From positions 160,001-224,000 of the forward strand of contig JBHLQH010000001.1 of assembly GCA_048884965.1 (NCBI GenBank): DNA of 64,000 nucleotides. Direction: 5' to 3'. How positions within the stretch are numbered: position 1 is the first letter of the stretch; every line of letters begins with the position of its first letter. Below the pieces are notes generated by a model. The model saw only the letters and a list, made by a program, of their open reading frames with translations. It had not been told where the DNA came from and searched no databases. Shown in pieces: positions 27,429 to 32,281 of the stretch. A program made the position numbers and the translations under genes. This stretch comes from Candidatus Thorarchaeota archaeon. GTDB taxonomy: Archaea > Asgardarchaeota > Thorarchaeia > Thorarchaeales > Thorarchaeaceae.

Positions 27429-27540
27429 GCGGTGAGTGATTCCACTTTTCCAAAATAAGCTACTGATTCACGCGTTTTTCGGTTCTCTAGTTCACAATAG
27501 TCAAGCTATTAAGGGGTTTCTGTATAATTATGATTTACCG

Positions 27541-28812
27541 ATGCCAATGAAAGATATTCCATTTACCCTTCAGATAAAGGACCCCCTACATGGGTATCTT
27601 GGACTTACTCAGTTAGAACAGAAGATCGTGGATTTGCGACTATCTCAGAGATTGCGATACATCAGATCGCCAGCAGGAACACATCTGGTCTTTCCAGGAG
27701 TAGACACATCCCTAATGGGACGTATGCTAGGAGTCATGCATGTTACTCAGATATTTGTGGAATACCTCGGGGGAGAAATGGAAGAGGTCGAGAAGGCACG
27801 GCTCGCGACCATGATGTATTCGCTATCTTTTGGTCCGTGGGCGAATGTAATGGACGAGTATCTAACGACCCGTGGTCTTGATAGAAGAAAGATGGCGAGT
27901 CTTGTAGTACAATCAGGACCAGTTGCTGATATCCTGAAGGATAGTCGCTTTAGTGTAGCTGAAGTGCAGGATTTAGTTCTCAAAGGAGTTCCGATTAAGG
28001 GGATTAGAGTAGATCTTCTTACCACACCAATAAATCCAGAGCTAATCGATAATCTGGAACGGGACGCATATTTCGCAGGAGTTGAGTATGCACAATTAGA
28101 GTTCAGGCGGCTATTTGGTGCTACACGTATCGCGAAGAATAAGATAGCCTTCGAGCGTGGTGCATTGTTCACACTGGAATCCTACATGAGTGCAAACCTC
28201 AATATGTTTGATGCTGTCTACTATCACAAGACGGTCCGAGCTGCTGAACTAATGATCCTTAGAATCCTTGACGAAACGGGTTCACGTTTGATTCCGTATC
28301 CAGGTGATGACTTGGATGCCTTTCTGCTGAGTGATGATTTGACTTCTCATGACATCTTGCTTTCAGTTCAATCTGATGATCCTGAGGGAATGGTCAATGC
28401 CAATAGAATATTCGTTGATTATCGAAAACGGAATCTCATCAAAATGGCTAGCGCCAGGTCCATCTCCAATGATGCATTCTTGAAGAAGCTTAAGACTCCA
28501 GATGGTCTTTTTGCCGTAGAACAGGAAATTGCAGACGAAGTTGGCATTGATCCAAAGAATATCTACGTAGATTATCCTGATCGTCCATCAGTACCATACT
28601 ATCCTGGTAGACATAAAATGGATGATCTCGTTCTATTTGAGAGGGGGTCGTCTGGATATGAATTCTGGCCAGTAGATGAGATAAGCGAGCTGGCAAGAAG
28701 CTATAAGCGTAAGATGAAGACGATCAGAGTTTATACTACCAAGGGCTATCGACAGAAGGTCCGGAAAGTCGCAGATGACTTCCTTGAAAGCATAGACAAT
28801 CCTACACTATAA
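27541..28812 (+). CDS. SAMHD1/dNTPase-like HD-fold protein lacking the HD motif
   Basis: IKDPLHG, QRLRYI, LVFPG, LERDAY.AGV, VYYHKTVRAAE. Start moved to in-frame ATG 27541. Confidence 0.85.
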   Translation: MPMKDIPFTLQIKDPLHGYLGLTQLEQKIVDLRLSQRLRYIRSPAGTHLVFPGVDTSLMGRMLGVMHVTQIFVEYLGGEMEEVEKARLATMMYSLSFGPWANVMDEYLTTRGLDRRKMASLVVQSGPVADILKDSRFSVAEVQDLVLKGVPIKGIRVDLLTTPINPELIDNLERDAYFAGVEYAQLEFRRLFGATRIAKNKIAFERGALFTLESYMSANLNMFDAVYYHKTVRAAELMILRILDETGSRLIPYPGDDLDAFLLSDDLTSHDILLSVQSDDPEGMVNANRIFVDYRKRNLIKMASARSISNDAFLKKLKTPDGLFAVEQEIADEVGIDPKNIYVDYPDRPSVPYYPGRHKMDDLVLFERGSSGYEFWPVDEISELARSYKRKMKTIRVYTTKGYRQKVRKVADDFLESIDNPTL

Positions 28813-28821
28813 GGATTCTAG

Positions 28822-29352
28822 ATGCATCGTACATCCACACAATGTATATACAATCACTCCGATACAATTGGATTGGTGCAGAAATTGAGTATGGATACAA
28901 CTATAGGTGAGATGCAGAAGGACCCAAATTTTGGTCTAATCCTTCTTGGCGCACTACTATGGATTGCGGGATCATATATTCCCTTCATCGGTCCTTTTTT
29001 CCTGACCATTGGATTTGGCATTGTATGTACAGCTGCCGCTATCACTTCACTAACGCGGTCCTCTGAAAATGCTGTCTTTGGCCTGCTATTGGGAGGAATC
29101 ATTCAAGTCATTGGGTATTATCTCGCAGGAGTACTTCTCATTGGGCTGATTGCCCCTATTCCGATAGTATTGGGCGGAGTCTTAATCATCTATTTCGCAA
29201 TTCCGTTGGCTATTCAAACTGGAAGAGTTCCATTCATCGAAGAATTCCAAAAGAAAATCGATGCACAAAGACACAAAGATGAGAAAGTCGTTGATGCAGA
29301 TGTCGTCGAATCTGATGATGAAGACAGCTTTGATGATTCAGCAGCGAACTAG
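28822..29352 (+). CDS. Small 4-TM membrane protein with acidic tail
   Basis: Four hydrophobic segments and an acidic C-terminus. True start probably near 28876-28891. Confidence 0.75.
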   Translation: MHRTSTQCIYNHSDTIGLVQKLSMDTTIGEMQKDPNFGLILLGALLWIAGSYIPFIGPFFLTIGFGIVCTAAAITSLTRSSENAVFGLLLGGIIQVIGYYLAGVLLIGLIAPIPIVLGGVLIIYFAIPLAIQTGRVPFIEEFQKKIDAQRHKDEKVVDADVVESDDEDSFDDSAAN

Positions 29353-29423
29353 TCAAGCTAGACACACTCAGTCCATGAATGTTCATATGCTAAAGATGGT
29401 AATTCATACTAGATGCATTTTAG

Positions 29424-31709
29424 GTGATTCTCTTGTTCTCATGTAGCAAGTGCGGAAACGCCCTCTTCATACGTTCAGCTTATCTGAAAGACATGATATT
29501 GAGTCTGGATGTGCAATGCCTCAATGGACACAAGAGTGTTCGTAGAATTGCTGAGCATCAAGTTGAGGATGTTGCTCAAGAGCTATTCAGTCGTATGTAC
29601 AACTGCTTAGATTGCGGATACACCATGATGGTAGTTGGTTCTGAATCACATGGTGAGATTACAGAAAGTATTTTCCTGTGTCCGAATCATGGCCCTCAGT
29701 ATCGAGAATTTCCAAGCAAATATCTTGGGCACGTAAATCTTGCAGGAGCTGACCTTGATCCCTACATCGCGATCAGAAATTCATTTCGCTGCAAAGAATG
29801 TGGACTTGTGTATGCAGTAACTGATGTTGTAGAACGATCGGGAATACTTGAGCTTGCGACACGTTGTGCTAATGGGCATAGGGATACAAAATATCTTGCA
29901 CCTCAAATTGACGAAAGCATCTTGAAAAGAATACTACAACGTATCGTTCATTGTGATCGTTGTGGTCTTCCTGGACACATCTCGACAATAGAAGAGAGGA
30001 AGAAGGAAACTCGCTTGGTTGCTCTTTGCCCTACTCACGGTGAATCCAAGAAATCCATCCCCTCGAACATGCTGGCAATCGTACAAGCAGCAGTAGCTGA
30101 GATCCCTGACGATGCTGTCGTGCGTTCAATGTTGACTACCTCCAAATGTCATAGACCTCTGGTAATTCGAGAAATCGAAGAGACCTATTCCGGATACAAA
30201 TTCAAAACTATATGTCCTGGTAGAGGAAGCACTGGGGACTTTGTAATTCCTGTGAATTGGAATGAAAGAAACAATGAACTTGTTTCACAGTCCGTTCTTA
30301 CGTGCTCAGAATGTGGACTACAGACCCATATCCTTGAAGGAAGAAAAAAGAAGACCAGCATTGAATTCAAAGTCGTCTGTCCTATTCATGGAGTTATGCT
30401 CCGAGAGACCCCTCATGATATATTTGAGATTATCAGGAACACGTCAGCAGAATTCGATAGAATGCCATCACTGATTAGAAGCCTTGGATGCCAGGAATGT
30501 GGACTTCCCCTCACATTGCGTGATGTTGAACAGAAACGGAATCTCGTAGAATTCGACATGGATTGCAGAAATGGGCATCGCACAAAACGATTCTACGTAC
30601 CTAATATGGATCAAGATTCTCTGATTGGTCTTTACAAGAATCTCTACAAATGTCCCGAGTGCTACGATCCTGTTGATTTGGTTTACACAAAACCCGAAGG
30701 GAGAGAAACTCGGGTTGTGCTCCTTTGTCCTCTCCACGGCAAGCAAGTTCTAGATGTACCTGATAATCATGCGAATGCAATGAACCTTGCTTATGCTGAG
30801 ATCAAAGAAGATCGGATGAAACCTCGAATCGAAGCTATTCAGGAGGACCCTGCAGTTGAGCTTGAGGCTCGAACAGAATCGTCTGATATTCCACTGAAAC
30901 AAGTGGATGTTCTACGAGGGTGCGAAATTATTGGTGGTAAATTCGACTTCAAGGTAAAAGTAGCTAATAATACGGACTTCGTGATTACAAATGTGACAGT
31001 CAGTATAGTTGCATTTCCGCAGGATTGCATGGAAATCGGCGGCGAGAATGCCAAGACCATATCTCGAATTGAGGTAGGTGGGTTCAGAAGCCCCTCATTC
31101 ACTTTCTATCCTACGAAGGATTGTGTGCAAGGGAAAGTCGTGGCGACTGTTTCATATATTGATTTCAGGGATCAACTTCATACAATCCAGGTCGAGCCCT
31201 ATCTTATCAGATCTGTGTGCGACCTGCTCAAACCATCAAAAGCCACATCGCAACAATTTGATTTGATTTTGACGAGTCTCACAAAGGCTGGAGAAGAGCA
31301 AACCCTAGAGTGGAATCCAAAGATTCTCTTCACCAAGGCTGAGAAACTCCTTCCAGCTAAAAACTTCCATATAATTGATACTGATGAGAAGATCATCTCA
31401 GGTCAGTTCATAGGAACGATTCGCGGATATGCAGAAGGAAAATACACCGGAAAGAAAGTCGCTGTTGTTTTTCTTATTTCAGGTCCTGAGAATGGCCGCA
31501 ATTCAGCTGTCAAAGTCGAGGCACTTGGTGAGGATATCGCCATGCTTCCGACAACAATAGATGAACTGGCAGAAACGATGGATTCATGGATTTGTCTTCG
31601 ATGCGGTGCGCCGTTGGATACTGAGCAGGTTGATGAACTTGGTAAAAGGCAACCTATCAGATGCAGATACTGTTCACATACATTGACCATGGGGCTCTAT
31701 TTGATGTGA
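29424..31709 (+). CDS. Multi-Cys3His repeat protein with adaptin-appendage-like domain and C-terminal Zn ribbon
   Basis: Eight CxxC-x~21-C(xNGH|PxHG) units, then a beta-sandwich plus platform-like region, then CLRC...CRYC. Confidence 0.8.
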   Translation: MILLFSCSKCGNALFIRSAYLKDMILSLDVQCLNGHKSVRRIAEHQVEDVAQELFSRMYNCLDCGYTMMVVGSESHGEITESIFLCPNHGPQYREFPSKYLGHVNLAGADLDPYIAIRNSFRCKECGLVYAVTDVVERSGILELATRCANGHRDTKYLAPQIDESILKRILQRIVHCDRCGLPGHISTIEERKKETRLVALCPTHGESKKSIPSNMLAIVQAAVAEIPDDAVVRSMLTTSKCHRPLVIREIEETYSGYKFKTICPGRGSTGDFVIPVNWNERNNELVSQSVLTCSECGLQTHILEGRKKKTSIEFKVVCPIHGVMLRETPHDIFEIIRNTSAEFDRMPSLIRSLGCQECGLPLTLRDVEQKRNLVEFDMDCRNGHRTKRFYVPNMDQDSLIGLYKNLYKCPECYDPVDLVYTKPEGRETRVVLLCPLHGKQVLDVPDNHANAMNLAYAEIKEDRMKPRIEAIQEDPAVELEARTESSDIPLKQVDVLRGCEIIGGKFDFKVKVANNTDFVITNVTVSIVAFPQDCMEIGGENAKTISRIEVGGFRSPSFTFYPTKDCVQGKVVATVSYIDFRDQLHTIQVEPYLIRSVCDLLKPSKATSQQFDLILTSLTKAGEEQTLEWNPKILFTKAEKLLPAKNFHIIDTDEKIISGQFIGTIRGYAEGKYTGKKVAVVFLISGPENGRNSAVKVEALGEDIAMLPTTIDELAETMDSWICLRCGAPLDTEQVDELGKRQPIRCRYCSHTLTMGLYLM

Positions 31710-31711
31710 TG

Positions 31712-32281
31712 TCAATTTTCACCAGTCCATTCGATTCGAGGCTTGTCCTTTGCGTGGAGATGTGTTAACAATCGGTCTACCAAAGCATCAAGCAACTCAT
31801 CAATAGTCTGTGGCTTATGCCAGAACGCTGGGGACGCAGGAAAGATGGTTGCTCCTGCGGCTGCTACCAATTCCATGTTCTTGATGTGAATGAGATTCAT
31901 TGGTGTTTCTCGGACAAGGAGAACTAAGGGTCGCTTCTCCTTCAGGCTACAATCTGCTGCACGTGCGATAAGGTTGTCTGCATAACCATGAGCGATTCCT
32001 GCAAGTGTCTTCATAGAACATGGTGCGATGATCATGGAATCCAAATGAAAACTACCACTAGCAGGTCCTGCTGTTAGATCATCCTCTTCGTACGATATAT
32101 CAACATCTCTAGCGATTTGGTCAATACTCAATCCTGTTTCATGTTGTAGGGTCTTCTCTCCCCATCTACTGACAATCAGATGGATCTCATGTCCTAATTC
32201 CTTCAGGGCACGAATCACTTTCACACCATAGATGGCACCACTTGCACCTGTGAGAGCAACAAGTATTCGTTTTCTTTCCAT
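31712..32281 (-). CDS. ubiX: Flavin prenyltransferase UbiX
   Basis: TGASGAIYG, ASGS, PCSMKTLA, RAAD..LKE, RETP. Confidence 0.96.
   Translation of the reverse strand: MERKRILVALTGASGAIYGVKVIRALKELGHEIHLIVSRWGEKTLQHETGLSIDQIARDVDISYEEDDLTAGPASGSFHLDSMIIAPCSMKTLAGIAHGYADNLIARAADCSLKEKRPLVLLVRETPMNLIHIKNMELVAAAGATIFPASPAFWHKPQTIDELLDALVDRLLTHLHAKDKPRIEWTGEN

Follow-up and report, generated by a model that had tools for sequence, protein, structure and literature searches.

Does an archaeal zinc-ribbon protein end in the same kind of bipartite appendage, or ear, that is carried by the adaptor (AP), COPI and BBSome proteins of eukaryotes? The question is raised by a gene on the forward strand of a 64,000-nucleotide stretch of DNA (the window; contig JBHLQH010000001.1, positions 160,001 to 224,000) from an Asgard archaeon of the Thorarchaeota, a source with which the labels of the gene's relatives agree. 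The original prediction for this gene, made from its letters, placed a beta-sandwich, an alpha/beta platform and a C4 zinc ribbon at 30894-31709 and described the appendage as fused to a novel metal-binding solenoid. We find that the C-terminal module very probably has an ear-type fold, judging from its predicted structure. The gene product as a whole is probably a cytosolic scaffold of trunk, hinge and ear, in which eight zinc ribbons and an acidic hinge of about 25 residues would carry a bipartite appendage capped by a C4 ribbon, the ear perhaps serving as a hub of the kind formed by coat appendages.

The gene and its parts

The strings quoted in the original prediction and their positions all fall within a single open reading frame (ORF), 29424-31709 (+); 30894-31709 comprises its last 271 codons (residues 491-761) and the stop codon. 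The gene and the boundaries of its parts are established as follows.

29424..31709, + strand: whole gene (P0001), a single ORF of 761 amino acids (aa); soluble, with an array of zinc ribbons, a hinge, an ear and a capping ribbon
29424..30761, + strand: trunk, residues 1-446; eight Cys3His zinc-ribbon repeats of ~55 aa (CxxC...C-x2-3-H), unit 5 being degenerate
30762..30899, + strand: helix, residues 447-465, then acidic disordered hinge, residues 468-492; from the full-length AlphaFold2 model
30900..31235, + strand: ear subdomain 1, residues 493-604; predicted immunoglobulin (Ig)-like beta-sandwich, in both AlphaFold2 models
31236..31583, + strand: ear subdomain 2 (platform), residues 605-720; predicted helix, then TBP-like beta-alpha-beta4-alpha domain, in both AlphaFold2 models
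31584..31706, + strand: C4 zinc-ribbon cap, residues 721-761; from the Cys pattern

Two independent AlphaFold2 models were built. Residues 488-761 were modeled from an alignment of the C-terminal module of 75 diverse relatives (A1), and the full-length protein from an alignment of 69 orthologues and paralogues (A3). The mean predicted local distance difference test (pLDDT) score was 94.6 for the module-only model and 86.9 for the full-length model. In its own numbering, the module-only model consists of a beta-sandwich (7-117), a short helix, a beta-alpha-beta4-alpha domain (133-232) and a zinc ribbon.

Conservation within the family is highest in the sandwich (R498, G499, K510, K512, N515, P532, GGFRSP, D566-C567 and C599-D-L-L-x-P604). 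Its last motif, followed by F612, forms a conserved junction with the platform, in which N647-F648, G668, A670, G672-K673-Y674, D704 and M707 are conserved. The proposed C-terminal C4 zinc ribbon is borne out by C724, C727, C747 and C750, which are invariant in the 69 orthologues and paralogues, and many family members have weak Zn_ribbon Pfam matches. A subset of relatives lacks this ribbon, the match ending near position 238.

Structural resemblance to coat and BBSome appendages

When the module model was compared with PDB by Foldseek, the top ranks, all spanning ~240 columns, were taken by coat-adaptor and BBSome appendages; the best E values across both models were 3e-9 to 8e-9. A VIA-align search of 48,161 chains with the module model, independent of Foldseek, gave a similar ranking: the top two chains, and five of the best seven, were adaptor, COPI or BBSome appendages. 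The similarity greatly exceeds what chance would give. The fold comparison against AP2, COP and BBS appendages that had been suggested as a check was thus run with Foldseek and VIA-align. These appendages rank first, and the contrary outcome, matches to unrelated folds or to CARDB alone, did not occur. The principal matches are listed below, with Z scores, root-mean-square deviations (rmsd) and numbers of aligned residues.

9qpq_H, COPI leaf chain: Foldseek E 3e-9 (module); residues 711-953, Z 18.6, 3.8 Å over 228 (full-length)
AP-2 alpha ear: 1w80_A, Foldseek E 1e-8 and VIA Z 14.9, 12.3 Å over 209 (module); several entries, Z 17.1-17.6, 3.5-4.0 Å over 210 (full-length)
beta2 ear: 1e42_A, Foldseek E 1.5e-7 (module) and Z 14.9, 3.6 Å over 205 (full-length); 3h1z_A, VIA Z 13.9, 10.3 Å over 194 (module)
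gamma-COP ear: 1pzd, Foldseek E 1.3e-6 (module); 1r4x_A, VIA Z 12.5, 15.1 Å over 209 (module); 1pzd and 1r4x, Z 14.4, 6.9-7.6 Å over 222-226 (full-length)
BBSome, 6vbu: BBS9/BBS7/BBS2, Foldseek E 6.5e-5 to 6.2e-4 (module); BBS9 (6vbu_9), VIA Z 11.8, 10.1 Å over 179 (module)
AP-4 beta4 platform: 2mj7, VIA Z 13.4, 2.4 Å over 114 (module)

Residues 711-953 of 9qpq_H we take, from the length of COPB1, to be the beta-COP appendage. In the full-length model the whole ear superposes rigidly on the coat-adaptor ears, whereas the module-only model aligns both subdomains at 10-15 Å; an ear-like packing of the two is thus a prediction of the full-length model. The sandwich-plus-platform appendage of the original prediction is recovered in both models, with AP-2, COP and BBS9 appendages as the best matches over the two subdomains together.

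Taken alone, the platform matches AP-4 beta4 (2mj7) at Z 13.4-13.5 and 2.3-2.4 Å over 113-114 residues, with 16-17% identity, and the helix-grip folds of generic type, namely KA1, Bet v 1-like folds and cyclases, score no more than Z 9.0-9.7. Single-domain matches to the sandwich include lacto-N-biosidase (Z 12.6), TRAP-beta (12.6), the GAE domain of BBS1 (11.8) and those of GGA and gamma-adaptin (9.3-9.5). What is specific to ears in the models is the platform and the combination of sandwich and platform, not the sandwich by itself. A shape search of the ESM-Atlas returned the protein's own family, followed by further clusters from archaea; the eukaryotic clusters closest to it were the ears of alpha-adaptin and beta-COP. 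Methanobacteriota and Thermoplasmatota clusters are among the structural neighbors.

With the COPI beta- and gamma-COP ears and the AP-2 alpha and beta2 ears (9qpq_H, 1w80, 1b9k, 1e42, 1pzd, 1r4x; also 2mj7), the modeled protein shares the order of sandwich and TBP-like platform in one chain, a whole-ear superposition at Z 14.4-18.6 in the full-length model, and the C-terminal placement of the ear, which a disordered hinge joins to a repeat trunk. It differs in its trunk, which is an array of zinc ribbons where theirs is built of HEAT repeats or an alpha-solenoid, in the additional C4 zinc ribbon that caps the platform, in the lack of an FxxxW motif and in a sequence similarity too low to detect. 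The adaptors that bear such ears are heterotetramers; most relatives of the 761-aa protein bear the ear on a cargo-like membrane protein itself. The GAE-plus-platform region of the BBSome subunits (BBS1/2/7/9) is also similar (BBS9, Z 10.7-11.8 over 179-190 residues; all Pfam matches sub-threshold), but the 761-aa protein lacks their beta-propeller and C-terminal helical domain.

Trunk and hinge

Each trunk unit is predicted to fold into three strands and a helix, with pLDDT of about 85-95 in the full-length model, and C180, C356, C410 and C413 are invariant among the 69 orthologues and paralogues. Of the proposed metal-binding solenoid, the metal-binding part stands in the form of eight zinc ribbons, while a solenoid shape found no support. 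The hinge (468-492) has pLDDT <50, and residues 447-492 contain 11 D+E against 6 K+R.

Orthologues, 738-762 aa long, occur in Thorarchaeota. Among species representatives their ears are 77-89% identical and their zinc trunks 45-69%, so the ear is the more constrained part. The 761-aa protein has no signal peptide and no transmembrane (TM) helix, its hydrophobic windows peaking at 1.27, below the TM threshold. It matched no Pfam or NCBIfam family above threshold, giving sub-threshold zinc-ribbon noise only.

Carriers and spread of the ear cassette

An exhaustive phmmer search of 1.84 billion representatives showed that the ear is a mobile cassette, whose spread and fusion partners are established. 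At E<=1e-3 it is carried by 451 clusters (50% identity), 151 of them at E<=1e-30. Among the best 150 of the 451 clusters, carriers measure 129-2867 aa, with the module at the C-terminus in most of them. A simple hydrophobicity scan of 130 representatives found a TM helix upstream of the module in 97 (~75%), 62 having one or two helices and 35 being polytopic; in 86 of the 97, the last helix lies <=135 residues from the module. The 20 residues past the last helix have a net charge of +2.4, compared with -1.1 before the helix. The cassette of these membrane-bound relatives appears to be cytoplasmic, because a TM helix and a K/R-rich stretch precede it and a zinc ribbon closes it. By these sequence features, many membrane proteins have the ear as their cytoplasmic tail, and the 761-aa protein is a soluble carrier of it.

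In the long carriers the N-termini resemble signal peptides, and Big_13, SBBP propeller, PKD, beta-helix/NosD and TSP3 domains occur in the ectodomains. Ten polytopic carriers compared with Pfam matched no family apart from one zinc-ribbon match. The genome of the window itself encodes a second full ear copy on another contig (L002, G000:C53:283-4083, ORF 64-2304, +), in a type-I membrane protein with, in order, an SBBP-propeller-like ectodomain, an Ig-like domain, a TM helix, a K/R-rich linker, the ear and a zinc ribbon.

Soluble carriers are diverse. In other Thorarchaeota, a class of double-ear paralogues of ~700-800 aa (P0014 and P0002-P0024) has two complete tandem ears, each with its own zinc ribbon; those of P0014, at 170-436 and 485-753, share 42% and 54% identity with the window ear. 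TPR proteins with an ear also occur. In another Asgard family, a 485-aa protein (L045:1306-2763, G041:C5, minus strand) combines HEAT repeats, ear and zinc ribbon (HEAT_2 at 1.7e-7; Adaptin_N sub-threshold at 0.009) and, by its domain assignments, is trunk and ear in miniature. The layout looks the same in a cluster of 50 Thorarchaeota proteins from the ESM-Atlas (407 aa, HEAT_2 in 80%).

A survey of 300 additional genomes from the phylum found the cassette in 74 of 76 members of the window's family and, for three other families, in 65/68, 5/5 and 6/7 members; several more families that were searched gave none (0/28, 0/19, 0/11 and 0/11). Closed or near-complete Thorarchaeota genomes hold four to eight copies at E<=1e-10. 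Tandem arrays of four to five genes for ear carriers of 350-500 aa were observed in several Thorarchaeota genomes (for example G254:C51:20892-27424; G140:C2:25767-30707; G218:C15:4386-11263; G257:C20:11533-19183).

Asgard relatives and published appendage proteins

One relative connects the cassette with proteins already described. In another, Loki-type Asgard family, a 788-aa protein (L047:1279-3645, G147:C1, minus strand) contains N-terminal zinc ribbons, a PCI/winged-helix (wH) region with weak EAP30 similarity, an ear and a VPS28 C-terminal domain (Pfam PCI, 9.7e-18; VPS28, 2.9e-5). The A1 profile matches it at E 8.2e-20, and the window ear aligns with it in BLAST at 3e-8 across 235 residues. 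By these matches, its ear and that of the window are the same cassette. The protein is exactly the type of fusion reported in the preprint of Liu et al. 2020 (10.1101/2020.10.19.343400), which described Asgard fusions of Vps28/Vps23 with adaptin/COPI C-terminal domains and with E3-UFM1 ligase.

Eme et al. 2023 (PMC10307638) detected two ear Pfam domains in Asgard archaea, "not fused to each other". Makarova et al. 2024 (10.1101/2024.02.06.579148) described "adaptin appendage regions" composed of IG and TBP domains in Asgard proteins linked to the ESCRT (endosomal sorting) complexes and in Methanosalsum, one of them (Meth_adaptin) with a zinc ribbon and another joined to GOLD via a TM segment. 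They also reported Asgard Vps28-C/longin fusions and proposed that the appendage regions are interaction hubs analogous to ESCRT-0; the text of that paper makes no mention of Thorarchaeota. The 761-aa protein shares with these proteins (Liu 2020; Makarova 2024) the cassette at the sequence level, the IG-plus-TBP layout, the association with zinc ribbons and the existence of TM-linked forms, but it has an eight-zinc-ribbon trunk, lacks Vps28-C, SB, longin and wH domains, and has no ESCRT neighborhood. The fold assignment is therefore known in kind, archaeal ears having already been published. As far as we could check, there is no earlier description of the trunk of eight zinc ribbons, of the ribbon that caps the ear or of the expansion of the cassette onto membrane tails in Thorarchaeota.

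Genomic context

The start codon of the ear gene lies at or near GTG 29424 (or a nearby TTG), since the N-terminal FSCxxC is kept in orthologues that begin MFSC. Several database orthologues of 738-741 aa are annotated from an internal Met (window 29424-29495), an annotation that loses half of zinc-ribbon unit 1, including the first CxxC. Minus-strand ORFs at 30839-31102 and 31403-31690 were set aside, as they lie inside the conserved coding frame of 29424-31709. The genes next to the ear gene are the following.

28822-29352, + strand: small TM ORF of 176 aa with three to four TM helices, directly upstream of the ear gene
31712-32281, - strand: UbiX gene, convergent with the ear gene, its end 2 bp away

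The order HD_assoc_2, small TM ORF (at most loci), zinc-array-ear gene and opposite-strand UbiX (27436-31709 + / 31712-32281 -) is kept in ~20 Thorarchaeota species representatives. This order is weak evidence for a functional operon, because the synteny with UbiX persists as well. The single-protein search for related loci returned close Thorarchaeota orthologues only, and the paralogue P0005 sits elsewhere, in an unrelated FeoAB/LarA context. No ESCRT neighborhood or fused ESCRT domain is present at the window locus, and the orthologue locus has the same synteny.

In all recovered orthologues of the 176-aa ORF (~15 species), the last TM helix is followed first by a conserved acidic-Phe segment (VPFIEEFQ or IPIVKDLEDFIE) and finally by a poly-acidic C-terminal tail. 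As a sequence feature, this segment and tail could be a candidate linear-motif ligand of the ear.

Alternative explanations

The chief rival to an ear of shared descent is a convergent pairing of an Ig-like sandwich with a helix-grip/TBP-like domain, in which the helix-grip part would bind inner-leaflet lipids or a small ligand, as KA1- or START-like domains do, 20-130 residues below the membrane. A series of observations weighs against our interpretation, most of them in favor of this rival. The resemblance to ears is structural, with 9-17% identity. The Pfam ear models PF02883, PF02296, PF09066, PF07718, PF14806 and PF08752 have no match in the protein at E<=1 and do not figure in the top 25 families by frequency across the 75 relatives; PF14806 and PF02883 found nothing at E<=1 in the whole genome, and sequence and profile searches of PDB returned no ear chain. 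The FxxxW motif, through which AP-2 ears bind ligands and which the gamma- and beta-COP platforms conserve (PMC2262067), occurs in three of the 75 family members and not in the 761-aa protein, whose conserved platform aromatics lie elsewhere (F612, W630, F636, F648 and Y674). By itself the sandwich has a common fold, for which glycosidase, transglutaminase, complement MG and TRAP-beta domains score no worse than GAE, and the platform is matched as well by KA1, Bet v 1-like and polyketide cyclase folds. Membrane proteins make up most of the carriers. The two AlphaFold2 models differ in the inter-subdomain angle (rmsd to ears of 10-15 Å in the module-only model vs 3.5-4 Å in the full-length model), so that the angle in the module-only model is unlike that of real ears. 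Finally, none of the neighbors in the window (HD_assoc_2, the small TM protein, UbiX, DUF2070 and Peptidase_M28) is a trafficking gene. On the other side, ear platforms score ~4 Z units above generic helix-grip folds (13.4 vs <=9.7), the subdomains follow the same order as in ears, and the full-length model reproduces their rigid arrangement (Z 17-18.6, 3.5-4 Å over 210-228 residues). GAE_BBS1 matches, weak and sub-threshold, recur in 10 of the 75 members (best E 0.0028), PTHB1_GAE matches one relative at E 0.015, and relatives are fused to Vps28-C, HEAT and PCI, as befits trafficking-type scaffolds. The weak sequence signal is itself compatible with homology, since gamma-COP and adaptin ears are mutually only 12-16% identical (PMC2262067). 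We consider convergence rather unlikely and, on balance, lean towards common ancestry with the eukaryotic ears.

Two further readings were weighed against the ear. The relatives' source labels (RPC12/RpoP, Elf1, topoisomerase zinc ribbon), the many zinc ribbons and the DNA binding of the same fold in TBP (PMC3597702) could suggest a nucleic-acid-binding or transcription protein whose TBP-like domain contacts DNA or RNA. This is very unlikely: the cassette is for the most part attached to membrane proteins on their cytoplasmic side, its nearest structures are ears and not TBP or RNase HIII N-domains, and the labels rest on generic, sub-threshold zinc-ribbon similarity; we rejected the RNA-polymerase and Elf1 labels as generic zinc-ribbon annotation. 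An extracellular adhesion domain of CARDB/DUF11 type, to which weak DUF11 matches in six of the 75 members and a CARDB cluster at rank 10 of the Atlas search might point, is hardly credible given the ear-like platform, the lack of a signal peptide or TM helix in the 761-aa protein, and the cytoplasmic placement indicated by the topology of its relatives and by the zinc ribbon. Both the extracellular and the CARDB-only readings were rejected on these grounds.

Proposed role of the ear proteins

In its probable role as a trunk-hinge-ear scaffold, the 761-aa protein carries an Asgard-wide cassette that has expanded in Thorarchaeota and is borne on surface and polytopic membrane proteins as well as on HEAT, TPR, double-ear and PCI/wH-Vps28C proteins. 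Because the ear is strongly conserved across unrelated carriers, we infer one common partner or ear-ear contacts, and the ear may then be a protein-protein interaction hub, recognizing either a single conserved partner or further ears. Carriers that are soluble and multivalent, such as the 761-aa protein, might link or sort ear-tailed membrane proteins. A hub or sorting function is, however, a tentative proposal, drawn from the pattern of carriers. Such a system could also feed into the ESCRT machinery, as hinted at by the Vps28-C fusion, in another lineage alone.

A more elaborate version is a "cargo-borne ear" network in Thorarchaeota, in which hundreds of membrane proteins with their own ears would be cross-linked or sorted by soluble zinc-array-ear, double-ear and HEAT-ear proteins, forming a primitive adaptor system or proto-coat that shares ancestry with AP and COPI ears, with the upstream co-transcribed membrane protein as a possible ligand. 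We regard this version as unlikely.

Since archaeal ears have been published before, the value of the present findings lies in the architecture of the protein and the family-wide pattern, not in the assignment of the fold. In the vesicle coats of eukaryotes the ears act as interaction hubs, and a highly conserved archaeal cassette of this kind, tractable by sequence, gives a handle on the partners of archaeal ears. It also lets one ask whether cargo recognition predates dedicated adaptor complexes.

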